Part shown: one piece after another, positions 2,433 to 57,439 of the stretch | Numbering within the stretch: position 1 is the first letter of the stretch | How the letters are laid out: every line of letters starts with the position of its first letter | Assembly: GCA_036785375.1 (NCBI GenBank) | Contig: JAWMAR010000070.1 | Location: 4,836,001 to 4,900,000, forward strand | Source: Leucoraja ocellata | Taxonomy: Eukaryota | Reading direction: 5' to 3' | DNA: 64,000 nucleotides | Program-made: the position numbers and the translations under genes | The notes under the pieces: model-generated | Database searches by the model: none | What the model saw: only the letters and a program-made list of their open reading frames with translations | Told to the model about the DNA's origin: nothing

Positions 2433-3314
2433 GAGGGACCAGCGTACATGGGACATCTTGATCAGCATTGGGCAAGCTGTTTCCCTGCTGTATCACTCTA
2501 TGATTTTATGAATCACATCCTCAAACTCAGCTTTACCCAGTCTCCGATGCTCAAGTATTTGAATTGTCTTTCAAGGAGTTTATCTGGTGACGTGAGTTGA
2601 CATCAGTTCGCATTTGACAATAGACAACAGACAATAGGTGCAGGGAGTAGGCCATTCGGCCCTTCGAGCCAGCATCACAATTCAATGTGATCATGGCTGA
2701 TCATCCATAATCCCCGTTCCTGCCGTCTCCCCATATCCCCTGACTCCGCTATCTTTAAGAGCCCTATCTAGCTCTCTCTTGAAAGTGTCCAGAGAACCGG
2801 CATCCACCGCTCTCCGAGGCAGAGAATTCCACAGACTCACAACTCACTGGGTGATGAAGTCTTTCCTCATCTCCGTACCGTTGGTGTCTTTTTTCTCCTG
2901 GGTAACGTTTCAACAGATGAGAAGCTGAGGAAGGCTGGACAAATTAGTGACGTGCATTTTGTGGTGGGTAAACAGATCACAAGCTCGCACGTTCCAGGAG
3001 TAGAATTTGGCCATTCGGCCCATCCAGTCTACTCTGCCATTCAAACATGGCTGATCTCTGCCTCCTAATCCCATACAAGTTCAGACACAGTGTGCCCGCA
3101 TTTGGGGGAGGGGTTGAGGGGGTGGGCAAGGGAATGTTTGCGGTGGTGGACAGAGTTCCAGTCAAGCGGGCAAATGTCACCAGGATGAAGCAGAGCTTCG
3201 AGGAGATGCTCCAATCCAGGCAACTGGAGAGTGTTGTAGCCCACTCCTGATAGGGGCATTGTCCGTGGTGAGGAGGCTGGGGGAGGTGGTAAGTGAGTCA
3301 CCAGGTTAGTCTTG

Positions 3315-3385
3315 AACCACTGCAAAGTCGTTTCCTGTGTAAACGGAAATTGACTGTTTGACTTCAGTTGTGAATGAGGAAGAGG
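3315..3385 (+). promoter_or_regulatory. Candidate TATA-less leukocyte promoter with ETS/PU.1-like GGAA cores (TTTCCTG 3331, CGGAAAT 3344, GAGGAAG 3376) and RUNX-like AACCAC
   Basis: Motif cluster 50-120 nt upstream of the ATG; the latter two GGAA cores are kept in all four genes. Motif match only. Confidence 0.35.
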
Positions 3386-3434
3386 ACAACTCAAACGCAG
3401 TGCAGGGACCAAACCGATCCAACGTAGCCGAGAC

Positions 3435-3531
3435 ATGGCGGTGGGACAGGGAGAATTCACCCACCAGAGACGGCCCAGATCCAGGGGAACAGTCGCTCTG
3501 TTGGTTCTTGTCGCTGTTGGTCTCACACCAG
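3435..3531 (+). CDS. Gene A leader exon MAVGQGEFTHQRRPRSRGTVALLVLVAVGLTP(G)
   Basis: ATG in acATGg context; basic n-region then hydrophobic h-region; phase-1 donor CAG|gtaaat. It joins the V exon start GSRG, which completes the signal peptide. Confidence 0.85.
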
Positions 3532-6500
3532 GTAAATCGTTGTTTTACAAAATGCTCTGTTCTGAGGAATTATTTACCAACGCCTTGAATTATTTGTAAC
3601 CACAGACCTCTCTGTACTGTGTGGGGAGCTGATGATCAATTGCTCAACACTCGTTAGTTCCTGTAGAGACTTCCATCAGCGGTTGTTGTCGTGTTGTGTG
3701 CAGCCAAGTCGCACACAGCTAGCTCCCTGTGGAGAAGGGAGATAACTATCTACAGCTTGCCTTGCCTTGTGGACCTCATTGAAACTTACTGAATAGTGAA
3801 AGGCCTGGATAGAGTGGATGGGGTGAAGATGTTTACACTAGTGGGAGAGTCTAGGACCAGAGGTCGCAGCCTCAGAATTAAAGGGTGTTGCTTTAGGAAG
3901 GAGATGTGGAGGAATTTTGTGAGACAGAAACTGTGGAATTCATTGCCACAGACTGTGGAGGCCATCAATAGGTATTTCTAAGGCCGAGATGGATAGATTC
4001 TTGATCAGTACTGGTGTCAGGAGTCCTGGGGAAAAGGTAGGAGGATTTAGTTGAGAGGGAAAGATAGATCAGCCATAATTGAATGGAGGAGAGTAGACTT
4101 GATGGGCCAAATGGCCTAATTCTGCTCCTAGTACTAATGAACTTATGATCTGTTCTTCAGAATTATTTGCCAGCACCTTGAATTATTTTGAGCCACAGAG
4201 CAGACTACTGGGCTACGAACTGCTAAAGATAAAATGCTTGCAGACTTGTTCTTCCCTGCACTAATGACTGTTGTGATGCTGTGTGCTCAGTGACTTGGCA
4301 GCAGATCAGCTAAATGCATTACCCCTTCCATATCGCTTGACTTCCTCCCTCCCTGACTGTGGGTCTGAAGAAAGATCTTGACCCGAAACGTCAGCCATTC
4401 CTTCTCTCCAGAGATGCCCCCTGACCCGCTGCGTTACTCCAGCATTTAGTGTCTATCAAAGGCACACGGCACTCCCTCCACGCACTGCAATGGGAAATGT
4501 TGAACCTAAACCTTAGCACATTCAAAGAAAAAACCTGTGGAAGCCAGCCATTGGGAACAGGCGTCATCTCAAATGAGGAAGCACCAGAGTGAATTTAGCA
4601 TTTGGAGAAGTTGCGGTAATCTCTCCCTTCTGAGAAAAACCAGCTGCCTTACAACAGACTCTGCTGCTCGAGCTGTTCTACACACTTTGCTTTCCCCAGC
4701 CTCTGAGTTCTCGTTCAAAGCATTTGTCTTGTGGCTTGTGAGCTGACCTGGACTGATGTGATGATGTGTCTCCACCCCAGCTCCTGAATCTGCAGAGTTT
4801 CACATGTGTTAGAGTCATAGAGTGATACAGTGTGGAAACAGGCCCTTCGGCCCAACTTGCCCACACCGGCCAACATGTCTCAGCAACACTAGTCCCACCT
4901 GTCCATGTTTGGTCCAAGTCCTTTCAAATCTGTCCTATCCATGTATCCAGAGGGTCCCACCCTCTCCGGAGACTAAGAAAAGCAGGTCTCCCTACTGTTC
5001 ACCTAAGGTCCTTCTACAGGGGCACCATCGAGAGTATACTGACCCACGGCATCGCTTCCTGGTTTGGGAGCTGCAAGGCTTATGAAGAAAAACAACTTAA
5101 CAGGATCGTGAAGACAGCCAGTAGGATCATTGGTGCTCCACTCCCTTTCCTGTTGGAGATCTATCAGAAGCGTAACATCAGCAGAGCCATCTCCATTATA
5201 AAGGACCCCTATCATCCATCACACCACATCTCACTCACTCCCAATTGGGCCCCGCGAGTAAGGGGGCCCCGTGCAGTGTAATCTACTCTCGGCTCAGGTA
5301 GATCTACCCCGGGTGGAGAGAGAGTAGAGGGGTGGAGGGGGAAGAAGGGGGTAGACGGGGAGGGGGGTGTGAGGGGGAATGGAGAAGGGGGAGAGGGGAA
5401 GGTGGGTCGTTCGCTCACGGCAGCGCTCCTGCCCCTCCAGTCGCCGTGCTTCACGCACACAGCCCTGGCTCCACCCCTCTCTCTCCCCGGGGAGAGGCGG
5501 TGAACAATACACGGAGGGCTGGGCCGGGGGTTGGGGCATCGTATATAAACATCGGCCTCAACTCACACCCGTCTGCCCGGACCCCGGCATCCCTCTCCCT
5601 CCCTTCTCTCCTTCCCTCCCTCCTTCCGCTCTTTTCCTTTCTCTCATTCGCTCCATCCCTTCTTTCTCTACTTCCCTCCCTCCCTCCCACACACACACAC
5701 ACATAACGCACAGACAACTAACACACACAACTAAGTTAAGATGGGGTAGAAACCTTTTCACCCAGAGTTGTGAATTTGTAGAATTCTCTACCACAGAGGG
5801 CAGTGGAGGCCAATTCACTGGATGTATTCAAGAGAGAGTTAGATTTAGCTCTTAGGGCTAATGGAATCATGGGATAACGGGAGCAAGCAGAACTGGGCAG
5901 TGCCGGCTCGAAGGGCCGAATTGTCTCCTCCTGCGCCTATTTTCTATGTTTATATGTTTCTATGAATCGTCACCTATCCACTTTCTCCAGAGATAGTTCC
6001 TGTCCAGTTTAAGGTTGTGACCTCAATAACGGGTAGGCCATTGAGGACTCAGATGAGGAAATATCTTTTCACCCAGAGAGTTCCTCTTTCTCCAGAGATA
6101 GTTCCTGTCCCGTTGTGTTACTCCGGCACTTTGTGTCCTTTTGTACATTAACCAGCATCTGCAGTTCCTTGTTTCTACTAGTTCAATGGGGAAGTGGGTT
6201 GTAGTGAGATTGAACACAGGGTGGGTCAGAGTGAGTGACAGGTTGGCTTCCTGTCACATGACCACCACTCAGGTCAAGCCACACCCACATGGAAGGAGGA
6301 TCTGGGCGCCAGGTAGATTCAGAAGCAGTGTTCAAGAAGGAACTGCAGATGCTGGAAGATAGATATCGCAGTGGAGTAGACAAAGTGTTCAAGAAGGAAC
6401 TCAGTTCTGCTTTCACTGGAACTTGGGGAACAATCCCGGTGAAATGGGAATTAACACCAGCGGGAAAAGCATTAAAGTGCAACAGGATCTATGCAGAAGA

Positions 6501-9500
6501 AGAGAGACACAAAATGCTGGAGTAACTCAGCGGGACGGGCAGCATCTCTGGGGAGAAGGAAATGGGCGAGGAAACATCACCCGTCGGTTTCTCCAGAGAT
6601 GCTGCCTGTCCCGCTGAGTTACTCCGGCTCTTTGTGTCTATCTTTGGTGTAAACCAGCACCTGCAGTTCCTTGCTACACATGATCTATGCGAAACCATGA
6701 ACCTGTCTGAACAGCACAAATGACATGTTTTTTATTGTTAAACCTCAGCTTGTGTTACTGCAGTGTGAGTGATCTTTCATCATTAATGTGCCCACAGGGT
6801 CAAGGGGAATAACTGAACCCGAGGAGGTGAGGGGAGAGTTGGGGCAGTCGGTCACAGTGGAATGTCAGTATGATCGGAAATACAAAGACAACGACAAGCT
6901 ATGGAGTAAAGGTGATTATTTCGTTCCATCTTCTACCGTGGTTTCTACTGATCACCCACAACAAGGGAGAACATCGATGACTGATGACAAATCACAACGG
7001 ATAGTTTCAGTCACCATCGACAACCTGGAGAAGAGTGATGAAGGACTCTACTGGTGTGTGATAGTAAAGGGAAATCATTTGCCCATTGTATCGACCTCCA
7101 TCTCATTGAAGGTTTCTGAAGGTAAGTTGCCGATCTCTCCTCACTCTCCCAGATGTGAAAATTCCAGCCTGTGAATTCCCGGCCTCGGTCCTGACGGTGA
7201 CTCGGTGCCACATCCCCGGGGGTCGCGGTAAGGGGGTTGGGTGGATAACTCACTTACTGGGGTCCTGGCCCGTGGGGCCACACCAAGAGCTCACTGTCCC
7301 AGGAGCAATATGGGGGGGGGGGGGGGGACTGTCAGACACCAGCCCCACGGAAGGTCCCATCTACCGGCGGTTCTGTTGCTGACGGCTCATTTCCACGAAG
7401 ACGATCGCTCCGGGACCAGAACCTCTGCCGCCCCCTCACTGGGGCAGGTGGTGGGAAACCCGGGTGGAGATAGGAGTCAATGGGGGAGGGGGCAGGTTAG
7501 TAGAAGATACTTAAAATTAGAGAACCAACGTTCAAACCGTTGGGTTGTAAACTACCTGAGCCCAATATGAGGTGCGGTTCCTCCAATTTGCATGTGGCCT
7601 CACTCTGGCAATGGAGGAGGCCCAGGACAGAAAGGTCAGTGTGGGAATGGGAAGGGACATGGACAGGGTTGGCAACCGGGAGATCAAGAATGGTCCCGAC
7701 CCGAAAAGGACACCTATCCATTTTCTCCAGAGATTCCGCCTGATCCGCCGAGTTACTCCAGCACTTTGTGTCTATCTTTGGTGTAAACCAGCACCTGCAG
7801 TTCCTTTCTACACATGATCTATGCGAAACCATGAACCTGTCTGAACAGCACAAATGACATGTTTTTTATTGTTAAACCTCAGCTTGTGTTACTGCAGTGT
7901 GAGTGATCTTTCATCATTAATGTGTCCACAGGGTCAAGGGGAATAACTGGACCCAAGGAGGTGAGGGGAGAGTTGGGGCAGTCGGTCACTGTGGAATGTC
8001 CGTATGGTCAGGAATACATTGACAACAAGAAGCAATGGAGGAAAGGTTATTATTACACACTATCTGATACCGTGGTTTCTACTGATGACCCACCACAAGG
8101 GAGAACATCGATGACTGATGACAAAACACAACGGATAGTTTCAGTAACCATCGACAACCTGGAGAAGAGTGATGAAGGATACTACTGGTGTGTCATAGTA
8201 CGATGGAACTTCAGTGAAAAGACCTCCATCTTATTGACGGTTTCTGAAGGTACGTTGACGATCTCTCCTCACTCTCCCAGAGGTGAACATTCCAGCCTGG
8301 GAATTCCCGGCCTCGGTCGTGAGGGTGACTCGGTGCCTCATCCCCGGCGGTCGTGGGGGGGGGGGGGGAGCTCATCAATGGGGACCGGCGGTCCTGCTGC
8401 TGGCGGCTCATTTCCCCAAACACGATCGCTCCAGGACCAGAACACATGGTGCCCCCTCACTGAGACGGGGGGGGGGGGGGGGAGAGATCTGCCCCCTCAC
8501 CCTCTCCCCCTGCCCGTCACTGTCACACCCACCACGCACACAACATCTGAAGAAGGGTCCCAACCTTAAACATCATCTATTCATTCCTTCCACGGATGCT
8601 GCCTGACCTGCTGAGTTACTCCAGCACTTTGTGTTTTGCTCAAGATTCCAGCACCTGCAATTCCTTGTGTCTCACAAACTTTGGTGAATCATGAGCTCAG
8701 TTTATTGTTGGCGTCTGTACTGAGGTACAGGGAAAAGCTTTTACCATGTTTCCAATGAGGGCCAAGTCATTGTGTATTTTCAGGTGGAGATTGACCGGTT
8801 CTCAATTAGTACGGGTGTCAAGCGATATGGGGAGAAGGCAGGAGAATGGGGTTAAGAGGGAGAGATAGATCAGCCATGATTGAAAGGCGGAATAGACTCA
8901 ATGGGCCAAATGGCCTCAATCTGCCCCTATCACTTATGAACTAATGAACTAAGAATCCTCATGAGATGAGTGATATAGACTTTACACTGAGTCACACAAA
9001 CTGTACAAGATGAGATACTCAACGGGTCGGGCAGCTTCTGTGGAGAGAGAACGAGAGTTAATGTTTCAGGTAGATACCTCCAACCAAATTGCATTATTTC
9101 CAATTCAGTCCGCGTAATGAAAATAGTCCATGGATCCTCCCGCTCCCAAGTTCTTCTCCAATGTAGAAGACATGTGCCTAACTCTAGCAGCAGGCAGATA
9201 ACACAGCCTGTGGGACTCTGAAGGGCATGAAAGAAGTCTCTGAATGCTTGCGACAATCTGGTGGCATCTTAATGGGTGAGCCTCCGGTCTAGATCAAGAG
9301 GCTTCGTCCATCTATGGTGGCCTCAGAAGGATCTTTGCTCAAATGTATGGATTGGGATTTGAACCCAGGAATCTCCCCACACAGAGCAAGAGCACTCCCG
9401 ACTGAGGCATCTCCCACACATCACTAAAGTGGCACAGAACGTGATTTCAGACATTTTTTTATTTATTTTATTTTATTTTTTTAATTTTTATTAGCAGTAC

Positions 9501-12500
9501 AGTAAATCACATTAATACATCGCATATATCTTATTACATTATGTTGTACCACTTCATTTTTTGAGCTTTAAAAAAGAAAGAAATAAAATAAATAAGAAAA
9601 GTAAGCAAGAATCGTGAAGGTGCAGGAAAGTGTTGGGAGAAAAGAACCCCTTAGGGAAGGAATTAGAGAAGGAAGCAAAGAAAATAAATAAGACCCTAGA
9701 ATGAAAAGAAAAAAAGGAAAAAAGGAAAGTCAGTCGCTCTATTGTAACACAAAACTCCGCAAAAAAGGATATACCAACCATGTTTTTATTAAAAATTTCT
9801 TTTATACCCCCCATTACCAGGTCCTGGTAGCCTTTATATTTTAATTTATTATTGCACCTTAGCTTGTAATAGTTCCATAAATGCAGACCACGTCTTTTGG
9901 AAGTGATCTGCTATACCTGCTAGGAGGAGACTCATCTCTTCCAAGTGTAATGTTTCGAACATGTTTGAAATCCACATTTTTGTTGTTGGTATTGGAGCAT
10001 TTTTCCAAAATTTAAGTATAAGCTTTTTTCCGATTATTAGCCCATAATTAAGTAAGTTATTTTGAAACATATTTAATTCTGGGTTACCTTCCGATATTCC
10101 AAAAATGATCAATTCTACTCTAGGTAGAAGTTTTGTTTTAAATAATTTTGTAAAGATTTCAAATATTTAGTTCCAGAATTTTTGAATTTTTATACAGAAA
10201 ACAAAAGAGTGCGCTATGTTAGCTTCTTGTACCTGACATTTATCACAAATGGGTGAGACATTGGGGAAGAGTTTATTTATTTTAGTTTTTTAATAATATA
10301 GTCTGTGTAATGTTTTATATTGGATTAGAGTATGTCGTACGTTGATCGAGCATTTATGCACATATAATAAGTGTTTATCCCAGCTCTCTTTTGAAATTTT
10401 TATAGCTAATTCTTGTTCCCAATCTCTTCTAATATTATCTGTTGTAGGTATTTCTATATTCAATATAATATTATATAAGTATGATATTAGATTTGCTGAT
10501 TCAGCCTTTATCTTCATGGCTTCATCTAATAAGTCTGGGGGCATATTATAATAGTCTTTTGTACATTTTTTCAGATAATTACGGATTTGAAGATATTTAA
10601 AATATTGATTATTTTTCAAGTTATATTTCAGTTGTAATTGTTGAAATGGTAATAATTTCCCTAATTTATACAGGTCTCCGAGCGTTTTGATTCCCGTTCT
10701 TTCCCATTGTGTAAATGATTTATCTATAATTGAGGGTTTAAACGAAGGGTTATTGGCTATTGGCATTAGCAGAGATAGATTTCTTAATTTTAAGTTCTGT
10801 TTTATTTGTTTCCAAGTTCTAATTGTATTATGTACTATTGGATTTTTATTATAATATTTGTTATTCAAATTCGTTGGTGAGAGGAGAGTCGCGCCTGTAT
10901 TACCAGGAGCGCAGTCCTCTCTCTCCATTATAATCCAGTCCACCTGCTGGGCAGAGTTGTCCAGCAGGTGAATCATATTTTTAATATTTACCGCCCAATT
11001 ATAGTACATAAAGTTAGGGAGCGCTAGACCACCCATCTCTTTTGGTTTACTGAGGTGTGCTCTTTGTATTCTGTGGGATTTATAATCCCATATAAAGTTT
11101 GTGATGTCTGAGTCTAATTTTTTGAAAAAAAATGTTGGAAGATATATTGGAATTGATTGAAATAAATATAGGATTTGTGGTAAAAAAAATCATTTTTATA
11201 GCATTTATTCGACCTATTAAAGACATAGGCAGCGTTTTCCAGAATTTAATTAGATTGTTTAATTTCTTAAGTAAGGGGCTATAATTAGCATTAAACATAC
11301 CGTGGTAATTTCTAGTGATTTCAATTCCTAAATATTTAAATTTTTCTGTAGCTATTTTAAAGGGGAATTTCAAAAGATGTGTTGAGTCTTTCGGTTTTAT
11401 TGACATAATTTCACTTTTGTTCCAGTTTATTCTGTATCCTGAGAAAGATCCGAAATCCTCGATTAGCTTTAATATGTTTGGTATACTGATTTGGGGTTTT
11501 GTGATATATAGTAATACATCGTCTGCATATAAGGATATTTTGTTATTTGAATGTTTTGTATTATACCCATAGATGTCAGGATGTGTTCTAATATTTTCAG
11601 CTAAGGGTTCAATTACTAGAGCGAATAGTAGCAGTGATAATGAACACCCTTATCTATTGCCCTTTGTTAATTGAAATTTCGTAGATACTATATATTATTA
11701 GTTAATATTCTAGCCGTGGGTTTGTTATATAATAATTTTATCCATGCGATAAAGCTCTCTCCCATTTGAAATTTTTGCAATACTTTAAACATATAATCCC
11801 ATTCTACTTGATCAAACGCTTTTTCTGCGTCCAATGAAATGATAGATAACTCTTGTTCTTGAGATTTGTGAGAGTGCATTATGTTAAGCAGACGTCTCAG
11901 GTTATTAAATGAGTGTCTCTTAGGTATAAATCCCGTCTGATCCTTATTTATTAATTTACTGACATATTGACTTAATCTTCTAGCTAGTATTTTCACTAAT
12001 ATTTTTTGATCAGTATTTAACAATGCAATAGCTCTGTATGATCCTGGTTCTTCTATATCTTTATCTTTTTTAAGTATTAGTGTGATCGTTGATTCTGCTA
12101 GTGTTTCAGGTAAGATTTGTTCTTTAAAAGCAAATGTATACATTTTCTGTAGACGTGGGGTCACTGTATCGTAAAAACATTTATAAAATTCATTACTGAA
12201 TCCGTCTGGTCCTGGTGTTTTTCCATTATTAAGTGTGTTTATTGTGTCTTCTATTTCCTTAGCTGTAATTTGTGCTCCCAGTTCCTCTTGTTCTTTCAAT
12301 TCTAATTTTGGGAGGTTACAATCGGTCAAAAATTCTGAAGCTTTGTTATTGTCTATTAGCGTTTTCGATGTATATAAGTTCTTATAATATTGAGCAAATC
12401 TTTTATTGATATCCTTAGGTGGTGTTAATAATTCCCCTCTATCTGATTTAATCTTCAAAATTGTATGATCTTTTTCCCGTTTTTTCAATTGGCGTGCCAA

Positions 12501-15500
12501 AAGTTTATGGGTTTAATCCCCAAATTCAAAACATTCTTGTTTGGTAGTTTGGAATAATCTTATAATCTTCTCTGATAGTAATTTATTTAGCTTAAATTTC
12601 AGAATTAAAATTTTGTTATGTTTATCCATAGTTGGATCTTTAGCATTATCTATATCTAGTTGTCTGATTTGTTCTTCTAATTGTCTTTGTTCATTTTTAT
12701 TCTTTTTGTTTTGAAAAGCTTGATACGAGATAATGACTCCTCTAATAAATGCTTTGAAGGATTCCCATAATAAAGTAGGCGAAATATCTGGTGTATCATT
12801 TATCTCAAAAAATAGATCCATTTGTTTTTTTAGATATATACTCCCTTGTGGGTCTTTCAAAATTTGCGAGTTAAACCTCCAGAACGATGTGTTCATAGAG
12901 ATTCCTTCCAATTTTAAAACAAAAGATAGCGGGGAATGATCTGAAATCGTATTAGTGTGGTATTTAGGGTTAAGAGTATAAGGAATTAGTTTTGAATCCA
13001 CTAGGAAATAGTCTATGCGTGAGTATGTTTTATGCACCATTGAATAAAACGAGTATTCCCTTCCAGTCGGGTTCGCGATCCTCCAAACGTCTCCTATATT
13101 TGTATTTTTTATATATGTATTTAAGAGTTCACTAGTTTTAGATTTCCTATTACCTCTTTGTTTTTGCATCGATTTATCTAAATACGGATCTAAAGCACAG
13201 TTGAAGTCTCCTCCAATTATAACATTTTGGTAGTTGGATTCTGCGATTTTATTCAGAATTTTATTAAAAAATTGAGGATTATCAACATTGGGCGCATATA
13301 TGTTTACCAAGGTGATTGGCGTAGCATAAATCTCTCCTGTGACTATAAGGTATCTCCCTTCCTTATCTGATATAATATTCTTTGATTTGAATGGTATTCC
13401 TTTGCGAATAATAATTGCGGTGCCTCTAGGTTTCGATGTGTATGAGGAGTGAAATGTTTGGCCTATCCATTTCGCCCTCAATCTCATCTGGTCTTGATGT
13501 TTAAGGTGCGTTTCTTGAAGAAACGAAATGTCCGTGTTATATGATTTCAACTGAGCTAGTATTTTGCCCCTTTTAATTGGTTCATTAATACCCCTTATAT
13601 TCCAGCTCCAGCTGTGATTCCTCCTTTAATGTCCAAAAACTTAATTCACTTTATCTCCACAAGGGTCTCAAACAAGCCGCCCAGACATGGTCATCACCAC
13701 CTCTGCAACAATAAACAGAAGGGCTCGGACCACCCTGCCTCAAGATGCACCAAGCACCCGGGCAGCAAGTTCCACTGAGTCTCATGGTTCAACACTTCCA
13801 AACAGGTTAGTAACTCGAAGAGCCAACTCAGCCTCACCTGAGAACAAATTAGTTAAGTTCAATTCAGCTCAGTTTAAAGATACAGCGTGGAAATGGACCC
13901 CTTGACCCACCGAGTCCGCTCTGAGCAGCGATCACCCCATACACCAGTTCTGTTCTACACACTAGGGGCAACTTACTACAAACCCGCACGTCTTTGGAAT
14001 GTGGGAGGAAACTGGAGAACCCAGAGTAAACTCTTGCGATCACAGGGAGAACGTACAGACTCTGCACTGACAGCACCGGTATCAGGATCAACCCCGCGTC
14101 TACTGTGCTGTGAGGCAGCAACTCTACCGCTGAGCTGACATCTCAATGGGCGAGCCTCATGTCTAGATCAAGGGGCTTGGTCCATCTATGGTGGCCTAGG
14201 AAGGATCCTTGCTCAAATCTCAGGTTTGGGATTCGAATCAAGAATCTCCCCACACAGAGCAAGATCGCCCCCAACTGAAGCATCTCCCACACGTCACTAA
14301 AGTGGCACAGAACGTGATTATAAACATTTAATGTTCAAAGACTTCATTCACTTTATCTTCACAAGGGTCTCAAACATATCACCCAGATATCCTCACCACT
14401 TTGGTGCGTGTGTGTGGGGGGGGGGGGGGGGGGGGGGGGTTGCACGGTGGCGCAGCGGTAGATTTGCTGCCTTACAATGCTTGTAGCGCCGGAGACCCAG
14501 GTTCGAACCCGACTACAGGTGCTGCCTGTACGGGGTTTGTACGTTATCCCACGACCGCATGGGTTTTCTCTGAGATCTTTGATTTCCTCCAACACTCTAA
14601 AGACATACAAGTATGTAAGTAGATTGGCTTGGCGTATGTGTCAATTGCCCCTAGTGTGTGTAGCCTAGTGTTAGTGTGCGAGGATCGCTGATCGGTGTGG
14701 ACTCCATGGGCCGTCGGGCCTGTTTCCGCGCTATATCTCAAAATTAAACTAAACTGGATTAAAATATGGTCACCACCACCTGAGGAACCACCACACCCAC
14801 TCTGCCTCCGGAAGCATCGACCACCAGGGGCTCCTGGTTCATCGCCTCGACACAGGTCAGTGACTCAAAGTCCCAGTACTTTGAGAAAGCGTGGCTGATC
14901 ACATTCCAGTCCATTGATAAATACTCCTTGGCACTGACTAAAGTCCCTCTGTCCTTAGTACACCCAGTGGCCCTACCATTGTGAATGTCTACCCTTATTT
15001 GATGCCAAAAACAAATAACTTCACACTTATCACGGTTCAATTTCTGCTGGCATTGCTCTGCCCAACATACCAGTTGCTTCTTATCCCTCTGTGGTCTATG
15101 ATTATCGTACTATCCAAAATGATACAATGTTGGTGTAATCTGTAAACTCGTAAATCATACTTCCAACATTAACATCTAAGGCCGGCAGATGGGACTAGTG
15201 TAGATAAGGACATCTTGGTCGGCGTGGGGGAAATTGGGTCAAAGGACATGTTTTCGTGCTCTATGTCTGACCATCAAAATGAACATCTAAGTTGTTAATG
15301 TATGTAGTCATGGAACACCTCCAAGGAATGGGTGCATGTTGCGATATCAACATCTCACCAATGTCCACGCCAAAACCATGGATCACACTGAATGATTCCG
15401 TGTGCAATATGATGAAAGAAAATTGCCAGCGTTGATCTGTGGTAACTCTGTGTGGAAGTAATAATATTTCCTTGGATTTCCAGGGACATCGTGCTGAACA

Positions 15501-16997
15501 TCGTTTGCCGTGTTTGGGGTGTGTTACGCTGGGTACTCTTTGGAATTCTGCTTCTCTTCCCGGTTTCCATCAGCTGTGTGACAACTTTGAAAAGGTGAAA
15601 GTTTGCAATCTCTTCACTCTGATGTTCACATTAAATTCAACTGGAAATGATGGGAATTTACTTTCGATTTGTAGAGATAAAGTGTGGACATACAGTGCCC
15701 TCCGTAATGTTTGGGACAAAGACCCTTCATTTATTTATTTGCCTCTGTATTCCACAATTTGAGATTTGTAGTTGAAAAAATCACATGTGGTTAAAGTGCA
15801 CATTGTCAGATTTTATTAAAGGGTATACAGCCAATCAAGTCCGCACCGACCAATGATCACCCCGTACACGCGCACTATCCTACACACGAGGGACAATTTA
15901 CAATTATACAGAGGCCAATTAACCTACAAAACTACACATCTTTGGATTGTGGTAAGAAACCGGAGCACCTGGATAAAACCCACGCTGTCACAGGCAGAAC
16001 ATACAAACTCCGTACAGACAGCACCCGTAGTCATGATCAAACCCGGGTCTCTGACGCTGTAAGGCAGCAACTCTACCGCTGCGCCACTGTGCCGCCCTGG
16101 GTCATTTCCTCGGGTAAAATTTGATGGTGGAGATTATAAACTGTGTTTTAATTGTTATTCAAGGAAAAAAACAGCCAAGACCTTGGAGATGGGGTCGGCA
16201 GTGGTGGAGGAAGGAGAGGAACAGCGCCGGTGAGCTGGCTGGGTGAGGCCTCACCTCGCATGGAGACGGCCGTGGGAGGCGAGAGGAAAGGGTGCGTTGG
16301 TGGGTCGAGGTGTGGGCGGAGTGCGAGTGGGCTGCTGGAGGCCCTGCAGCAGCCGGTGGATCGGGTACCGCTGGAGGCCCCACAGAGGTTGGGGACGAGC
16401 GCACGGATCGGACACGGCCTGCAGCGGCACGGAGCGGTGGTGGAGGCACCGACAACATCGCCAGGCCAGGCCGACCCCTGCAACTCCCACCCAGTGCCGT
16501 CTCCATGACAACGGGCCTTTAAGCCCAAAATAAAATGGGCCTTTAAGCCCAGTTTGATGTTTAAGAATATAAGATACTGCCAGAAATGTGGCAACTCTTG
16601 TGTACTGCATCATATAATCTGCTATTAATACTCTTGTTCTTAGCTTCAGCTGTGCTTATATCAAGTAAGATTTTTACTGAATTCTATACAAAAGAAATGT
16701 CACTGTACCCATGTGCATGAGACAATAAAGTACCATTGAACCATTGAACAATGGGGATATAAAAACGGTTAAATGATTACGTATTGAACTGTGGACACGC
16801 GTTAGAAGAATAAGATAAAAATGAAGGGTAATCGTTATATCAATATTGTTATTCTGACGGAATGACGCCCAATAATCATCGTTTAGCTTTTCAGGGCCAG
16901 AGAGGGTGTTCACCAGTTGGAGATGTACAAATCTCATCACCTTGACCCTACAGCATCACCACACCACACCTATGTCCAATCTACCTTGACCACTTGA
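3435..16997 (+). CDS. Gene A: two-Ig-V-domain CD300/pIgR-like (MDIR-like) type I membrane receptor, 364 aa, join(3435..3531,6798..7121,7932..8249,13664..13805,15484..15594,16895..16997)
   Basis: Six exons with GT/AG boundaries and compatible phases (1,1,1,2,2) total 1095 nt with no internal stop. They encode signal peptide, two V-set domains, mucin stalk, TM and tail. The last exon is the least certain. Confidence 0.85.
3785..4148 (+). mobile_element. Short CR1 3' fragment in intron 1 (copies near 40475-40835 and 57660-58020)
   Basis: KGLDRVD...SRTRG...WNSLP peptide and a typical 3' tail. Confidence 0.7.
4935..5232 (+). mobile_element. Rex1/Babar-like LINE fragment, 3'-deleted (same deletion in C at about 41652-41929)
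   Basis: Same peptide as the D copy, ending at HPSHHI. Confidence 0.75.
6798..7121 (+). CDS. Gene A Ig V1 exon (type alpha)
   Basis: cccacag| ... GAAG|gtaagt; GQSVTVEC, W, DEGLYWC V-set motifs; 324 nt. Confidence 0.95.
7932..8249 (+). CDS. Gene A Ig V2 exon (type gamma)
   Basis: tccacag| ... GAAG|gtacgt; DEGYYWC; 318 nt. Confidence 0.95.
9454..13627 (-). mobile_element. L1-clade LINE, 5'-truncated (ORF2 + 3'UTR + poly-A), degenerate, in the gene A V2-stalk intron
   Basis: APE endonuclease motifs (FLQETH, GDFN, YSRIDY, SDHSP), RT (PGPDG, LDAEKAFD, LYADD) and T-tract at the left end. Several frameshifts/stops. Empty site in B and D. Confidence 0.93.
13664..13805 (+). CDS. Gene A Ser/Thr-rich stalk exon
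   Basis: ctccacaag| GSQTSRPDMVITTSAT...STLPN |gttagt; phase 1 to 2. Confidence 0.8.
14366..14855 (+). pseudogene. Duplicate stalk pseudo-exon disrupted by a SINE (copies at 30300-30792 and 51056-51555)
   Basis: Same acceptor context (cttcacaag|ggtctcaaaca) and similar 3' end (...cacag|gt) as the functional stalk; upstream intron also duplicated. Confidence 0.7.
14438..14755 (+). repeat. tRNA-derived SINE inside the duplicate stalk exon (copies at 30377-30692 and 51138-51455)
   Basis: A box GTGGCGCAGCGG, B box GGTTCGA(A/T)CC, (taaac)n tail. Confidence 0.8.
15484..15594 (+). CDS. Gene A transmembrane exon (R)DIVLNIVCRVWGVLRWVLFGILLLFPVSISCVTTLK(R)
   Basis: atttccag| acceptor at phase 2, matching the stalk; hydrophobic span with Arg. 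Confidence 0.85.
15693..15822 (+). mobile_element. Tc1/mariner-like terminal fragment (copies at 31413-31542 and 52386-52515)
   Basis: TA|CAGTGCCCTCC(G/A)TAATGTTTGGGAC: TA target plus CAGTG terminus; no partner end seen. Confidence 0.55.
16895..16997 (+). CDS. Gene A putative cytoplasmic exon (R)AREGVHQLEMYKSHHLDPTASPHHTYVQSTLTT*
   Basis: gcttttcag| acceptor, phase-2 compatible, conserved in A/B/C, followed by a conserved AATAAA about 400 nt downstream. Confidence 0.55.
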
Positions 16998-17775: not shown

Positions 17776-20037
17776 GGTTGAGTTCTTCATTAGGATGGAG
17801 GGTGACATTGTTAATTCAGAAACAAGGGTCCTGAACTTAAAGAAAGGTAACTTTGAGGGTATGAGAAGTGAATTGGCCAAGATAGACTGGCAATTGATTC
17901 TTAAAGGGTTGACGGCGGATATGCAATGGAAGGCATTTATAGGCTGCATGGATGAACTACAACAATTGTTCATCCCAGTTTGGCAAAAGAATAAATCAGG
18001 GAAGCTAGTGCATCCGTGGATAACAAAGAAAATCGGGGATAGTATCAAAACAAAAGATGAAGCATACAAATTAGCCAGAAAAGGCAGCCTACCAGAGTCC
18101 AGCAGAGGAGGGCAAAGGGGTTAATTAGGAAAGGGAAAATAGATTATGAAAGAAAACTGTCAGGGAACATAAAAACTGACTGCAAAAGTTTTTATAGATA
18201 TGTGAAGAGAAAAAGATTAGTGACAACAAATGTAGGTCCCTTCCAGTCAGAAACAGGTGAATTGATCATGGGGAACAAGGACATGGCAGACCAATTGAAT
18301 AACTACCTTGGTTCTGTCTTCACTAAGGAAGACATAAATAATCTGCCGGAAATAGCAGGGGACCGGGGTCAAATGAGATGGAGGAACTGAGTGAAATCCA
18401 GGTTAGCCGGGAAGTGGTGTGAGGTAAATTGAATGGATTAAAGACCGATAAATCCCCAGGGCCAGATAGGCTGCATCCCAGAGTACTTAAGGAAGTAGCC
18501 CCAGAAATAGTGGATGCATTAGTGATAATTTTTGAACACTCTTTAGATTCTGGAGTAGTTCCTGAGGATTGGAGGGTAGCTAATGTAACCCCACTTTTTA
18601 AAAAGGGAGGGAGAGAGAAAGTGGGGAATTACAGACCAGTTAGTCTAACGTCCGTAGTGGGGAAAATGCTGGAGTCAGTTATTAAAGATGGGATAGCAGC
18701 ACATTTGGAAAGTGGTGAAATCATTGGACAAAGTCAGCATGGATTTATGAAAGGTAAATCATGTCTGACGAATCTTTTAGAATTTTTCAGGATGTAACTA
18801 GTAGAGTGGATAAGGGAGAACCAGTGGATGTGTTATATCTGGACTTTCAGAAGGCTTTCGATAAGGTCCCACATAAGAGATTAGTGTACAAACTTAAAGC
18901 ACATGGTATTGGGGGTTCAGTATTGATGTGGATAGAGAACTGGCTGGCAGACAGGAAGCAACGAGTAGGAGTAAACGGGTCCTTTTCAGAATGGCAGGCA
19001 GTGACTAGTGGGGTACCGCAAGGCTCAGTGCTGGGACCCCAGCTATTTACCATATATATTAATGATTTGGACGAGGGAATTGAATGCAACATCTCCAAGT
19101 TTGCAGATGACACGAAGCTGGGTGGCAGTGTTAGCTGTGAGGAGGATGCTAGGAGGCTGCAAGCATAGGCTTGGATAGGCTGGGTGAGTGGGCAAATGCA
19201 TGGCAGATGCAATATAATGTGGATAAGTGTGAGGTTATCCACTTTGGTGACAAAAACAGGAAAGTAGATATTATCTGAATGGTGGACGATTAGGAAAAGG
19301 GGAGATGCAATGAGACCTGGGTGTCATGGTACACCAGTCATTGAAAGTAGGCATGCAGGTGCAGCAGGCAGTGAAGAAAGCGGATGGTATGTTAGCATTC
19401 ATAGCAAAAGGATTTGAGTATAGGAGCAGGGAGATTCTACTGCAGTTGTACAGGGTCTTGGTGAGACCACACCTGGAGTATTGCGTACAGTTTTGGTCTC
19501 CTAATCTGAGGAAAGACATTCTTGCTATAGAGGGAGTACAGAGAAGGTTCACCAGACCGATTCCTGGGATGTCAGGACTTTCATATGAAGAAAGACTGGA
19601 TAGACTTGGCATGTACTCGTTAGAATTTAGAAGATTGAGTGGGGATCTTATAGAAACGTATAAAATTCTTAAGGGGTTGGACAGGCTATATGCAGGAAGA
19701 TTGTTCCCGATGTTGGGGAAGTCCAGAACAAGGGGTCACAGTTTAAGGATAAGGGGGAAATCTTTTAGGACCGAGGTGAGAAAAACATTTTTCACTCAGG
19801 AGTGGTGAATCTCTGGAATTCTCTGCCACAGAAGGTAGTTGAGGCCAGTTCATTAGCTATATTTAAGAGGGAGATAGATATGACCCTTGTGGCTAAAAGG
19901 ATCAGGGGGTATGGAGAGAAAGCAGGTACGGGATACTGAGTTGGATGATCAGCCATGATCTTATTGAATGGCGGTGCAGGCTCGAAGGGCTGAATGGCCT
20001 ACTCCTGCACCTAATTTTCATGTTTCTATGTTTCTAT
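17776..20037 (+). mobile_element. CR1-clade LINE, 5'-truncated, inserted about 360 bp upstream of the gene B ATG
   Basis: [44 protein letters not shown] motifs; (tttctatg)n tail; splits 'catggctgat|ctctgcc', which is contiguous in A, C and D. Confidence 0.9.
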
Positions 20038-20396: not shown

Positions 20397-20493
20397 ATGG
20401 CGGTGGGACAGGGAGAATTCACCCACCAGAGACGGCCCAGATCCAGGGGAACAGTCGCTCTGTTGGTTCTTGTCGCTGTTGGTCTCACATCAG
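20397..20493 (+). CDS. Gene B leader exon
   Basis: Paralog of the A leader, ends ...VGLTS G|gtaaat. Confidence 0.85.
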
Positions 20494-23400
20494 GTAAATC
20501 GTTGTTTTACAAAATGCTCTCTTCTTTAGAATTACTTACTAGCGCCTTGAATTATTTGTAACCACAGACCTCTCTGTACTGTGTGGGGAGCTGATGATAA
20601 ATTGCTCAACACTCGTTAGTTCCTGTAAAGACTTCCATCAGCGGTTGTTGTCGTGTTGTGTGCAGCCAAGTCGCACAGGCTAGCTCCCTGTGGAGAAGGG
20701 AGATAACTATCTACAGCTTGCCTTGCCTTGTGGACCTCATTGAAATTTACTGAATAGTGAAAGGCCTGGATAGAGTGGATGGGGTGAGGATGTTTCCACT
20801 AGTGGGAGGGTGTAGGGCCAGAGGCCACAGCCTCAGAATTAAAATCCGCAGCTGGCCCTGTTGATCTTGGGTGTAGGGGTAACTCTTGGCCCCAGAACAG
20901 AGAGTTTACTCCACTATTCTGGTGCAAACTATCTCCAGGTGAACTTTCTCAGTGACTTGAGAGAGCAGACAGCAGATCGGCAAAGTGCCTGGGCAAAGTG
21001 ACATCACCTCCAGCAGTGGCGAGTTCCACCGGTACCGCACTCCCTCAGTCCTCGAGCTTCGGGAGTGGGAGTTGAACCAACGACTCTCTGACTCGGTGAC
21101 CAGAGTGCCACACGCTGACCTTTCGCTGGATGTCAATGCGGGCCTTTGGTGTGGCTCAGTTAGCCTGGGATTGAAGTTGTCCTCCTCTCCCCAACGAGAA
21201 TTCTGCAACACCCTGCCTCGCTGTTCCCCCTCTGTGATTCCACCTGCTCTCCGGCTCTGCGATCTACAATTCCTTCTCACCATCTGCTTCGATCTGTCGT
21301 TTTCACGCCTTACCCCTTGCATATCTGTTGACTTCCTCCGCCCTCCGACACTCGGTCTGAAGAAGGGTCTCGGCCCGAAACGCCACCCATTCCTTCTCTC
21401 CAGAGATGCCGCCTGATCCGCTGAGTTACTCCAGCATTTAGTGTCTATCAAAGACACACGGCACTCCCTCCACGCACTGCAATGGGAAATATTGAACCTA
21501 AACCTTAACACATTCAAAGAAAAAACCTGTGAAAGCCAGCCATTGGGAACAGGCGGGCATCTCAAATGAGGAAGCACCAGAGTGACTGTCCAATTTAGCA
21601 TTTGGAGAAGTTGTGGTAATCTCTCCCTTCTAAGAAAAACCAGCTGCCTTACAACAGACTCTGCTGCTCGAGCTGTTCTTCACACTTTGCTTTCCCCAGC
21701 CTCTGAGTTCTGCTTCAAGGCATTTGTCTTGTGGCTTGTGAGTCGACCTGGACTGATCTGATAATGTGTCTCCACCCCAGCTCCTGAATCTGCAGAGTTT
21801 CACATGTGTTAGAGTCATAGAGTGATACAGTGTGGAAACAAGCCCTTCGGCCCAACATGCCCACACCGGCCAACATGTCTCAGCAACACTAGTTGTCCAT
21901 GTTTGGCTAAACTTGTCCTATCCATATCCTATCCCTTCATACTTCACTTATCCATGTACCTGTCTAACTGTTTCTTAAACGATGGGATAGTCCCTGCCTC
22001 AACTACCTCCCCTGGCAGCTTCATCCATACACCCACCAGCCTTTGAGTGAAAAAGACACCTCATGGTTATTCCAGGTGGACGTGGAGTTTGAAACATCAG
22101 TGGCAGATCCAGCTTCCACCGCAGGCCTGGAAGTTTAGTTCAATGGGGCACAACGTGCTGGCGTAACTCTTCTTGTTCTTGGTTCTTGGTTTCTTGGTCC
22201 TCCAAAATATTCCAAATGGAATTTAAACTGGAGGTGGTGAAGGGAGGGATTAAGCCAGAAAGGGTTATTGGGAAGAAAGAGCTACTTTAAATTTAGTTGC
22301 ATCTGGTTGGGTAACTATAGTTGGGTGGAGATTATTCCATGCTTTAATTGTGCGGGGGAAGAACGAATTGCTGTACACATCTGTCTTTGTAGCTGGGATC
22401 ACAAATTGGATCGAATGCCCTCGTCTGCTAATTGGTTTGGGTTCGGTGTAGGTCTTGTAATCTATGTCTAGCTGACCATTTAACATTTTGTAAAAACAGG
22501 TTAAACGGTGAGCTTCACGTCTGTCTTGGAGTGGGTTCCACCCCAGAGAATTCAGAAGTTTGGTGACACTCGCTTCTCTGTCATAGGTGTTAGTAACAAA
22601 TCGAGCTGCCTGTCTTTGGACATGTTCGATGGAAGAAATGTTTTTATTTGTGTATGGGTCCCATGCTTCAACTGCGTAGTCCAAATGAGGTCTAACGAGG
22701 GTGAAATACAGCTTCTCCTTGACAGAAGTTGAACAATGATGAAAGTTGTGCCTCAGGAATTTTAGGACACCTGTTGCTTTCACCGTTGCATGATGAGTCT
22801 GACCATTCCAACGCAGATCATTCTGCAATTTGATGCCAAGATACTTGGTTTGTTTGGATTCTTCAAGAGTGGCACCAAGTATGTTGTAAGATGGATTCCT
22901 CTTTCTGGTGACACGCATGGTTTCACATTTGGAAGGGTTGAACTGCATGCCCCATTGTTGTGACCACTCAACCATAGTATCGAGATCCTTTTGGAGAGCA
23001 TCTTCATCATCAGCTGACTTAATTGGACGGTACAGCAAACAATCATCAGCGAATAGTCTGGTCGTACTTGCGACTTTTTCATGGATGTCATTTATGTAAA
23101 GCAAAAATAGGTGTGGGCCAAGTACTGTGCCCTGGGGTGTACCACTCAACACTGGATGCCAATTGGAGCTCTTTCCATTCACACACACATGCTGAAGATG
23201 TTTTGTCAGGAAACTGGAAATCCATTGTTTCGTGTTGGAACGAATACCATAGAAGTGAAGCTTCCGAAGCAGTCTCTGGTGTGGGATGACATCAAATGAT
23301 TTAGAAAAGTCCAGCACAACTAGAAAAGTCCAGCACAACTCAGTAGGTCAGGCAGTATCTCACGGTATCCCACAGATGCTGCCTGACCTGCTGAGTCACC

Positions 23401-26400
23401 ACAAGCAACTGGCTATTCAGCTTTAGTAAAACACAAAGTGCTGGAGTAACACTGCAGCTCAAGCTGCATCACTTGGTGACTTTAGAGACTTTAGAGATGC
23501 AGCACGGAAACAGGCCCTTTGGCCCATCAAGTCCACACCGTCCAGCGATCACCTGGCACACTAACACTATCCTACACACGAGGAACAAATTACAATTTTA
23601 ACGAAAGCCAATTAACCTACAAGCCTGCCCGTCTTTAGAGTGTGGGAGGAAACCGGAGCACCTGGAGAAAACCCACGCTGTCACGGGGAGAACGTACAAA
23701 CTCCGTACAGACAGCACCCGAGGTCAGGATGAAACATGTGTCTCTGGTGCTACCCATGTGCCACTGTGCCACCATGTCTCTACCCGTAACATTACCTATC
23801 CATGTTCTCCAGCGATTTTACCTGACCCGCTGAGCCATCACAGGCAGCTGGCTATTCAGCTTAAGTGCTGGAGTAAATCAGCAGGTCAGGCAGCATCTCT
23901 GGAGAACATGGAGAGGTTTGAGACCTGAATGAGGGGAAGGCTATTTAGGACTCGGATGAGGTAAAACCTTTTCACTCAGAGAATTTCTCTTTCTCCAGAA
24001 ATAGTTCCTGACCCGTTGAGTTACTCCAGCACTTTGTATCCTTTTGTGTATTAACCAGCATCTGCAGTTCCTTGTTTCTACAAGTTCAATGGGGAAGTGT
24101 GTTGTGGTGAGATTGAACACAGAGTGGGTCAGAGTGAGTGACAGGTTGGCTTCCTGTCACATGACCACCACTCAGGTCAAGCCACATCCACAGGGAAGGA
24201 GGATCTGGGCGCCAGGTAGATTCAGGAGCAGTTCTGCTTTCACTGGAACTTGGGGAACAATCCCGGTGAAATGGGAATTAACACCAGCAGGAAAAGCATT
24301 AAAGTGCAACTGGATCTATAGGGTGATTTCACGAAAGGTCACTGGAGCGTAGATCCGCACCCACGTGACCTAAAATCTCAAGTGGCGGACATGCTAGACA
24401 TCCGGTACATGTTAGTGGATGGGAAAACACGCACTTTCCCACCCGTTAAAAACATAGAATACGGCCAGGTTTTGATCTGCAATTTATTGTGCCAGTCGGG
24501 GTGACCGTGAGGCACAGCTACCTAGATTTACAGTCAAAAAAAAAAGATAGAAACTAAGGGAAATTAAAGAGGGAGCTGAAGGTGCCAATCCAGCGGAAGT
24601 GAACAGCGGACATTTGCCGTGGAGATTTAAAGGTCCAAAATATCGGGAATTATCGCGTTTGGTCACTGAATTTCATCAAAAGTAAGTCAATAACACAAAA
24701 GAAGAGAGACACAAACTGCTGGAATAACTCAGCGGGACAGGCAGCATCTCTGGAGAGAAGGAATGGGTGAGGGAACATCACCCGTCGGTTTCTCCAGAGA
24801 TGCTGCCTGTCCCGCTGAGTTACTCCGGCACTTTGGTGGAAACCAGCACCTGCAGTTCCTTGCTACACATGATCTATGCGGAATCATGAACCTGTCTGAA
24901 CAGCACAAATGACAAGTTTTTTATTGTTAAATCTCAGCTTGTGTTGCTGCAGTGTGAGTGATCTTTCATCATTAATGTGCCCACATGTCACACCCACCAC
25001 ACACAACCCCTGAAAAAGGATCCCAACACTATACATCGTGTATTCATTCCTTCCACAGATGCTGCCTGACCTGCTGAGTTACTCCAGCACTATGTGTTTT
25101 GCTCAAGATTCCAGCACCTGCAATTCCTTGTGTCTCACAAACGTTAGTGATTCATGAGCTCAGTTTATTGTTGTCGTCTGTACTGAGGTACAGGGAAAAG
25201 CTTTTACCATGTTTCCAATGAGGGCCAAGTCATTGGGTATTTTTAAGGTGGAGATTGACAGGTTCTCCATTAGTACGGGTGTCAAGCAATATGGGGAGAA
25301 GGCAGGAGAATGGGGTTGAGAGGGGGAGATAGATCAGACGTGATTGAATGGCGGGGTAGACTCAATGGGCCAAATGGCCTAATTCTGCCCCTATCACTTA
25401 TGAACTTGTGAACTAAGAATCCTCATGAGATGAGTGATATAGACTTTACACTGAGTCACACAAACTGTACAAGATGAGATACTCAACGGGTCGGGCAGCT
25501 TCTGTGGAGAGAGAACGAGAGTTAATGTTTTTAGGTAGATACTTCCAACCAAATTGCATTATTTCCAATTCAGTCCGCGTAATGAAAATAGTCCATGGAT
25601 CCTCCCGCTCCCAAGTTCTTTTCCTGTGTAGAAGACATGGGCCTAACTCTAGCAGCAGGCAGATAACACAGCCCGTGGGACTCTGAATGGCATGAAAGAA
25701 GTCTCTGAATGCTTGTAACCGTCTGGTGGTATCACAAAGTGCTGGAGTAGGTCAGCAGGTCAGGCAGCATCTCTGGAGAACATCGATAGGTGACGTTTTG
25801 GGTTGAGACCTGAATAAGGGGGTGGCCAGGTGGGGATAAACCTTTTCACCCAAAGTTGCGAATCTGTAGAATTCTCTACCACAGAGGGCAGTGGAGGCCA
25901 ATTCACTGGATGTATTCAAGAGAGAGTTAGATTTAGCTCTTAGGGCTAATGGAATCATGGGATAACGGGAGCAAGCAGAACTGGGCAGTGCCGGCTCGAA
26001 GGGCCGAATCGTCTCCTCCTGCGCCTATTTTCTATGTTTATATGTTTTTATGAATCATCATCTATCCACTTTCTCCAGAGATAGTTCCTGTCCAGTCTAA
26101 GGTTGTGACCTCAATAACGGGTAGGCCATTGAGGACTCAGATGAGGAAATATCTTTTCACCCAGAGAGTTCCTCTTTCTCCAGAGATAGTTCCTGTCCTG
26201 TTGTGTTACTCTGGCACTTTGTGTCCTTTTGTGCATTAACCAGCTTCTGCAGTTCCATGTTTCGACTAGTTCAATGGGGAAGTGGGTTGCAGTGAGATTG
26301 AACACAGGGTGGGTCAGAGTGAGTGACAGGTTGGCTTCCTGTCACATGACCACCACTCAGGTCAAGCCACGCCCACAGGGAAGGAGGATCTGGGCGCCAG

Positions 26401-29400: not shown

Positions 29401-30339
29401 CCATCTATGGTGGCCTCAGAAGGATCTTTGCTCAAATCTCTGGATTGGGATTTGAACCCAGGAATCTCCCCACACAGAGCAAGAGCACTCCCGACTGAGG
29501 CATCTCCCACACATCACTAAAGTGGCACAGAATGTGATTTCACACATTTAATGTTCAAAAACTTCATTCACTTTATCTCCACAAGGATCTCAAACAAGCC
29601 GCCCAGACATGGTCAGCACCACCTCTACAACAATAAGCACAAAGGCTTCCACCACAACTCGGACCACCATGCCTCAAGATGCACCAACCACCGAGGCAGC
29701 AAGTTCCACTGAGTCTCATGGTTCAACACCTCCAAACAGGTTAGTAACTCGAAGAGCCAACTCAGCCTCACCTGAGAACAAATTAGTTCAGTTCAATTCA
29801 GCTCAGTTTAAAGATACAGCGTGGAAATGGGCCCTTTGGCCCACCGAGTCCGCTCTGAGCAGCGATCACCCCATACACCAGTTCTGTTTTACACACTAGG
29901 GGCAACTTACTACAAACCCGCACGTCTTTGGAATGTGGGAGGAAACTGGAGAACCCAGAGTAAACTCTTGCGATCACAGGGAGAACGTACAGACTCTGCA
30001 CTGACAGCACCGGTATCAGGATCGACCCCGCGTCTACTGTGCTGTGAGGCAGCAACTCTACCGCTGAGCTGACATCTCAATGGGCGAGCCTCATGTCTAC
30101 ATCAAGGGGCTTGGTCCATCTATGGTGGCTTAGGAAGGATCCTTGCTCAAATCTCAGGTTTGGGATTCGAATCAAGAATCTCCCCACACAGAGCAAGATC
30201 GTTCCGAACTGAAGCATCTCCCACACGTCACTAAAGTGACACAGAACGTGATTATAAATATTTAATGTTCAAAGACTTCATTCACTTTATCTTCACAAGG
30301 GTCTCAAACATATCACCCAGATATCCTCACCACTTTGGT

Positions 30340-30370
<31 letters not shown>

Positions 30371-40126: not shown

Positions 40127-40223
40127 ATGGCGGTGGGACAGGGAGAATTCACCCACCAGAGATGGCCCAGATCCAGGGGAACAGTCGCTCTGTTGGTTCT
40201 TGTCGCTGTTGGTCTCACACCAG
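40127..40223 (+). CDS. Gene C leader exon
   Basis: MAVGQGEFTHQRWPRSRGTVALLVLVAVGLTP G|gtaaat. Confidence 0.85.
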
Positions 40224-51105: not shown

Positions 51106-51136
<31 letters not shown>

Positions 51137-57342: not shown

Positions 57343-57439
57343 ATGGCGGTGGGACAGGGAGAATTCACCCACCAGAGACGGCCCAGATCCAGGGGAACAG
57401 TCGCTCTGTTGGTTCTTGTCGCTGTTGGTCTCACACCAG
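57343..57439 (+). CDS. Gene D leader exon
   Basis: Same peptide as the A leader; phase-1 donor. Confidence 0.85.

Follow-up and report, generated by a model that had tools for sequence, protein, structure and literature searches.

The 64,000 nt stretch of Leucoraja ocellata DNA analysed here (the window) carries four tandem CD300/pIgR-like genes, likely encoding activating paired receptors, and the disulfide between strands C and C' is missing from all eight of their V domains. We hold, with moderate confidence, that the ligand pocket of these receptors, bordered by the C-C' and F-G loops, has likely been remodelled under diversifying selection, and that the disulfide, likely dispensable, has been lost repeatedly. 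The feature is real; it represents a variant that recurs within an already known family of receptors rather than a novel antibody-like molecule.

Gene organization

All four genes (G1 to G4) lie on the + strand of the 64 kb window (Table 1). G1, G2 and G3 are complete and open, with exons bounded by AG/GT in the order leader, V1, V2, Ser/Thr stalk, transmembrane (TM) segment and tail, while G4 is cut off after V2 by the window end. The TM carries an Arg (GVLRWVLFGILLLFPVSISCV) in all three complete genes and is followed by a Tyr-free tail some 23 residues long. A TM Arg couples receptors to ITAM adaptors, and the skate proteins may, judged from this residue, recruit such an adaptor. The features of paired receptors are present: clustered paralogs with similar ectodomains, the Arg-TM/short-tail form in 3/3 complete window genes, and ITIM-type paralogs in other named skates and in sharks. 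Within the window itself neither ITIM-tailed paralogs nor flanking marker genes were found. Among named proteins, the closest are RefSeq models from three skate genera (68-90% identity), called 'polymeric immunoglobulin receptor-like' and 'CMRF35-like', so this is a skate locus with counterparts already annotated. RNA reads cover both G1 V exons in two of four runs, adjacent intron bins being empty, and seven reads (6 + 1, from two of the four runs) cross the V1-V2 splice joint; they stem from family members and differ from the window sequence, and thus document expression of the family rather than of G1 exactly.

Table 1. Genes, V exons and C-C' positions in the window. The motif given for each V exon runs from Trp35 to residue 44.
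Feature	Position	Strand	Description
G1	3435-16233	+	353 aa; exons 3435-3531 (leader), 6798-7121 (V1), 7932-8249 (V2), 13664-13805 (Ser/Thr stalk), 15484-15594 (TM with Arg), 16164-16233 (short tail without Tyr)
G2	20397-31952	+	359 aa; exons 20397-20493, 26885-27208, 27937-28260, 29586-29739, 31204-31314, 31883-31952
G3	40127-52926	+	352 aa; exons 40127-40223, 43494-43817, 44624-44941, 50354-50495, 52180-52287, 52857-52926
G4, 5' part	57343-62686	+	leader 57343-57439, V1, V2; remainder would lie past window end
G1 V1 exon	6798-7121	+	WSKGDYFVPS; Pfam V-set E 1.2e-14
G1 V2 exon	7932-8249	+	WRKGYYYTLS; identical to G3 V2
G2 V1 exon	26885-27208	+	WSKGDYFLPS
G2 V2 exon	27937-28260	+	WSKGYYFTLS
G3 V1 exon	43494-43817	+	WRKGDSYQKS
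G3 V2 exon	44624-44941	+	WRKGYYYTLS
G4 V1 exon	61229-61552	+	WTKGDSYQKS
G4 V2 exon	62363-62686	+	WSKGYYYRSS
G1V1 residue 36	6905-6907	+	AGT (Ser) at C-strand Cys position; preceding TGG (Trp35) starts 6902
G1V1 C-C' loop	6911-6928	+	GDYFVP, residues 38-43, between model strands 32-37 and 45-49
G1V1 residue 44	6929-6931	+	TCT (Ser) at C'-side Cys position; matches Cys44 of CD300lf and of horn shark P0080

Several smaller features of the locus may be recorded here. The leader exons (3435-3531 and others) encode a batoid N-terminal extension (MAVGQGEFTHQ...) ahead of the hydrophobic segment; in several shark relatives the start Met stands further along, where the window leaders have none. Downstream of each true stalk exon is a degenerate second copy of its start (14365-14400, 30299-30334 and 51055-51090). 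A LINE-type element (9852-13625, - strand), with endonuclease and RT domains (Pfam) split over several frames, occupies the G1 intron between V2 and the stalk. By sequence, a related copy is present in G3 (about 46500-50300, - strand), with none at the same place in G2, and further RT remnants are found at 18758-19165 (+) and 22268-23347 (-).

The V domains of the window

All eight V exons are open with AG/GT ends, and tblastn with V1 and V2 queries found no others in the window. Each domain retains Trp35 and the canonical B-/F-strand Cys pair (residues 22 and 86), and these are its only two cysteines; the absence of the C-C' disulfide from all eight, noted in the initial annotation, is therefore confirmed. 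So are the residues said to stand in its place: the one after Trp is S (AGT) in four domains, R (AGG) in three and T (ACT) in one, and the partner, residue 44, is Ser (TCT) in 8/8. The accompanying remark that AGT and TCT each lie one step from a Cys codon covers half of the position-36 codons, the other 4/8 being two steps away. The loops were read correctly as GDYFVP, GYYYTL, GDYFLP, GYYFTL, GDSYQK and GYYYRS, of which GDSYQK holds one aromatic residue only. Since the V2 exons of G1 and G3 are identical (0/315 nt differ), there are seven distinct domains and not eight. All seven fall within one skate-only clade (26 rows, support 99/97), so that the eight cases represent one inherited state or event.

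Fold and family

Both V domains scanned against Pfam matched V-set. An AlphaFold model of G1V1 reached pLDDT 93 without a C-C' bond, with strand C at residues 32-37 and C' at 45-49, and the top ten ranks of a Foldseek search were all CD300lf/IREM-1 structures (TMq 0.86-0.91). From the B-strand Cys to strand C' inclusive, mouse CD300lf and the skate domain show no alignment gap and share the same numbering (KYWCQGVPQRSC vs KLWSKGDYFVPS); over the same span horn shark P0080 also aligns gap-free and has Cys at 36 and 44. The gap-free match to CD300lf, the modelled strands and the fold matches together identify the missing bond as the CD300/pIgR C-C' disulfide. They also bear out the original assignment to the CD300/TREM/pIgR-type family, the best fold matches being CD300lf (TM 0.87-0.90).

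Two strict CD300 traits are absent. A second disulfide at C-C' with a YWCR-type motif, used as a CD300 criterion according to PMC3031540, occurs in 0/8 window domains, and in place of one V domain per receptor there are two V exons per window gene (several shark relatives have one). Neither do the exons resemble the rearranging V segments of antibodies or T cell receptors: they are complete, including strand G, and are joined directly by splicing. By both sequence and fold searches the nearest solved relatives are CD300/pIgR, not antibody/TCR.

History of the disulfide

Together, the window and the homologs found by searches in named cartilaginous and polypterid fish supplied 99 distinct domains, and 65 of these form one elasmobranch subfamily (97 SH-aLRT; 100/100 against three outgroup rows). 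Both C-C' cysteines are kept by 29 of the 65, so close relatives do have them; Cys36 alone is present in 8, Cys44 alone in none, and neither in 28. The single-Cys domains contradict the earlier picture of a paired loss, and their excess on the Cys36 side suggests that Cys44 was lost first. Ser occupies position 44 in 33 of the 36 bond-less subfamily domains.

A tree of 68 domains (the 65 and three outgroup rows; 97 columns, LG+G4, loop columns left out) requires five changes of disulfide state. A single origin is rejected (p-AU 0.0003; 1e-42 for the domains with neither Cys), and the bond-less domains, not being one clade, do not define the distinct subfamily that had been suggested. They occur in Leucoraja, Amblyraja, Rhinoraja, Narcine, Pristis, Heterodontus, Scyliorhinus, Pristiophorus and Heptranchias; among the domains found, those of Carcharodon, Cetorhinus, Mustelus, four carpet-shark genera, Hemitrygon, Hypanus and Mobula all have two Cys. 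On this tree, which has 97 columns and open basal nodes, shark and ray lineages likely lost the C-C' bond on several separate occasions; the direction, loss and not regain, rests on the outgroups. The number of losses within batoids is uncertain because Pristis may group with stingrays (p-AU 0.375).

Both cysteines are absent from 18/19 distinct named skate domains, and the exception, an Amblyraja domain with Cys36, could reflect either retention or reversion. In Narcine bancroftii (P0002, P0006-P0008 and P0013-P0017), whose proteins have up to five tandem domains, all four distinct domains carry an unpaired Cys36, possibly as a free thiol or in an inter-chain bond. A heuristic census of 409 complete domains outside the subfamily, drawn from representative matches (the best 150 of 1967), gave both Cys in 367, neither in 36, Cys36 only in 5 and Cys44 only in 1; among the matches listed, bond-less domains included those of sturgeon, paddlefish, a characiform and a catfish. 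The second domains of Acipenser and Polyodon proteins (P0050, P0059 and P0083) have Ser at both C-C' positions, apparently independently.

In the horn shark, Heterodontus francisci, P0080 and P0187 differ at 5/107 residues (about 95% identical), including C36R, K37E and C44S, and share the loop GYYYLS. P0080 has an ITIM-type tail and both Cys, and P0187 an Arg-TM and neither. P0188, from the same species, stands beside P0187 as the bond-less, activating side of the pair. A similar pair was seen in a catshark: P0201 is ITIM-type with Cys36 only, and P0088 is Arg-TM with no Cys. Bond loss does not track tail type, given that the ITIM-type P0003, P0004 and P0075 are also bond-less.

The C-C' loop and the ligand pocket

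Mouse CD300lf binds phosphocholine in a cleft between its CC' and CDR3 loops that norovirus also uses, and the floor of this cleft is formed by Cys36-Cys44 with Tyr34, Gln41, Arg42, Trp89 and Met100 (PMC6166816). Mouse strains vary at residues 39-42 (VPQR/AYWK), a difference that switches norovirus entry into macrophage-like cells (PMC7431780). Even with its bond intact, then, the C-C' loop is established as a variable surface for ligand binding. The same residues 39-42 are variable in the skate domains, which supports the annotated view of the loop as a variable, likely ligand-contacting surface. The label 'antibody-like' fits poorly: the CDR-like loops are B-C, C'-C'' and F-G (PMC4786434), the loop in question is C-C', and in CD300lf the latter is already variable with the disulfide in place. 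Nor does release from rigidity agree with human pIgR domain 2 (D2), which is described as having a similar C/C' orientation without the bond (PMC4786434).

Other parts of the pocket have changed as well. Tyr34 of CD300lf corresponds to Leu or Gln in the skate domains, and the F-G motif G-x-D occurs in 2/65 subfamily domains vs 14/33 others. Calcium is held in CD300lf by Lys94, Gly96 and Asp98 (PMC6166816), and an Asp in the Asp98 register was found, by eye, in 2/8 window domains. As Lys94 and Gly96 make their contacts through backbone carbonyls, according to the same source, sequence is not conclusive on this site; the pattern suggests that a CD300lf-type Ca2+/phospholipid head-group site was altered early in the subfamily.

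Aromatic loops also occur beside an intact bond. The annotation had placed a Tyr-rich loop where the disulfide should be, but Tyr-rich loops lie between two intact Cys in horn shark (WCKGYYYLSC), Mustelus (CKGNYYYVLQC), whale shark (CKGYHYITC) and zebra shark, and 60/367 two-Cys domains outside the subfamily (among the best 150 of 1967 matches) have two or more aromatics in the six loop residues. Within the subfamily, the loop is aromatic in 30/36 bond-less vs 8/32 two-Cys domains (the latter including three outgroup rows), with means of 2.1-2.25 vs 1.14 aromatics per six residues, a contrast due largely to 18 stingray and manta rows. An independent-pair test of loss against aromaticity had three supported pairs, with none going the other way, too few for significance (median p 0.5). 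Loss and aromaticity may be linked, and the aromatic residues may have had a permissive role.

Selection and gene conversion

Over the seven distinct window domains omega was 2.4-2.5 (2dlnL 11.9-13.5 vs omega = 1), or 3.2 (2dlnL 14.5) with the gapped F-G loop left out, values that gene conversion can inflate, the window copies being mosaics. Of 12 same-position pairs of V exons, 11 differ by 4.9-13.9% and the identical pair by 0%, vs 0-5% for flanking introns, as is typical where exons that bind ligands evolve under diversifying selection. Variability peaks in the F-G loop (0.96 amino-acid changes per N site), followed by C-C' (0.86), with the framework at 0.23. For the C-C' loop alone omega > 1 was not significant (2dlnL 1.1; binomial p 0.2); together with a framework omega of 1.9, this makes the selection signal domain-wide.

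G1 and G3 lie in a 16.9 kb duplication with 97.5% identity. In a comparison of 3000-9500 with 39690-46200, the V1 bin differs by 12.4%, and 7750-8750, which covers V2, has 0% mismatch. This contrast points to recent gene conversion or exon swapping.

Interpretation

The preferred reading is that of a remodelled pocket, and its parts are as follows. The aromatic loop would already have been there while the C-C' bond existed. Cys44 would have gone first, mostly to Ser, leaving an unpaired Cys36 that later became Ser, Arg or Thr. A subfamily without the CD300lf-type Ca2+/phospholipid head-group site may have had a relaxed need for the disulfide at the pocket floor, and the C-C' and F-G loops would now contact variable, probably microbial, ligands. 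A bolder version, which we regard as doubtful, is that a single route, Cys44 to Ser followed by loss of Cys36, removed the disulfide of the CD300 lipid pocket at least five times within an elasmobranch subfamily, and that the C-C'/F-G face thereby turned from sensing self lipids to recognizing pathogens. If that were true, the horn-shark pair, with an inhibitory member that has the bond and an activating twin that does not, would be the switch caught mid-way.

Neutral tolerance is another account, in which the C-C' disulfide adds little stability and drifted away several times with binding unchanged, the loop variability being a separate matter. Human pIgR D2 keeps its C/C' orientation without the bond (PMC4786434), the CxnC motif is given as missing in 39/127 zebrafish NILT domains (bioRxiv 2022.04.21.489081), the census counted 36/409 other complete domains with neither Cys (among the best 150 of 1967 matches), and Ser, dominant at position 44, is isosteric to Cys. 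Set against this are the bond's place in the CD300lf pocket floor (PMC6166816), its retention in 367/409 domains of that same census (best 150 of 1967 matches), and the horn-shark pair, in which three of five differences fall at 36, 37 and 44 and one replaces Cys with Arg. We consider drift of this kind unlikely. Much less can be said for an Ig-binding (pIgR- or FcmR-like) transport or Fc receptor, its missing bond a D2-like structural trait. The top PDB sequence matches are indeed pIgR, with a score summed over five domains, and several relatives bear the RefSeq name 'polymeric immunoglobulin receptor-like', but the best single-domain match is CD300lf (E 6e-16 vs 2.5e-9 for pIgR D5), as are the best fold matches. 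Rapid V divergence among activating and ITIM paralogs present in multiple copies suits paired receptors, and the short, Tyr-free window tails, the architecture and the copy number argue against pIgR proper, making such a role most improbable.

The model first proposed for these domains, that paired Cys loss freed a rigid loop to become an antibody-like aromatic surface defining a new subfamily, is largely refuted as stated, and we think it very unlikely. In its favour, bond-less loops are more aromatic and few parts of the domain vary as much as the loop. It does not accommodate the aromatic loops with both Cys, the eight single-Cys domains or the scatter of bond-less domains over more than one clade; C-C' is not a CDR (PMC4786434) and is hypervariable with the bond in mice (PMC7431780), and the aromatic contrast comes largely from the 18 stingray and manta rows.

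Comparison with known systems

The closest counterparts are proteins of Leucoraja erinacea, Amblyraja radiata and Rhinoraja longicauda (e.g., XP_055510917.1, XP_055510911.1 and XP_032898105.1), with V domains 68-90% identical to those of the window. The RefSeq skate proteins share the same leader, stalk and TM exons, and P0005 matches G3 at 100% identity over the TM and tail; they differ in having one to four domains and in including ITIM-tailed paralogs. Skate MDIR (modular domain immune-type receptors; Cannon et al. 2006, PMID 16738934) are likewise multigene activating/inhibitory CD300/TREM/pIgR-like receptors of a skate, as related second-hand in PMC3031540. No MDIR-named match appeared among 11 matches or among the best 120 of 223, a result weakened by clustering and word seeding. 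In the literature searched, which covers skate MDIR second-hand only (PMC3031540), no description of the cysteine state of this subfamily was found. The first domain of carp SITR is described as having one Cys pair only (PMC3031540).

Mouse CD300lf/CLM-1 (PDB 6e47, 5ffl and 1zox) shares the V-set fold (TMq 0.87-0.90, 34-36% identity), and the CD300 family shares activating and inhibitory paralogs and variable C-C' residues 39-42. Unlike CD300lf, the skate domains are without Cys36/Cys44 and the F-G G-x-D, and each receptor has two V domains where CD300lf has a single one. Human pIgR D2 is a CD300/pIgR-type V domain without a C-C' disulfide, by its own sequence and PMC4786434, but it lies among the inner domains of a transport receptor present in single copy, and PMC4786434 does not report it as a diversifying ligand surface. 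The 'atypical' NILTs of zebrafish form an expanded fish cluster in which, according to bioRxiv 10.1101/2022.04.21.489081, 39/127 Ig domains are missing the inner CxnC motif; they belong to a TREM/NKp44-like teleost family, some atypical domains lie in predicted pseudogenes, and the likeness is by published description.

A missing C-C' bond is therefore already in print for pIgR D2 (PMC4786434) and zebrafish NILTs (bioRxiv 10.1101/2022.04.21.489081), and nothing in the skate domains suggests a novel system of antibody-like kind. CD300-type domains are commonly said to be marked by the C-C' disulfide, which in CD300lf is the pocket floor for lipids and norovirus. What stays of interest is its repeated, apparently ordered loss within one shark-and-ray subfamily, beside the horn-shark pair, a natural pair whose five differences make it simple to probe what the bond does. 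The repeated loss also warns that the C-C' motif is unsafe for defining or excluding members of this family.
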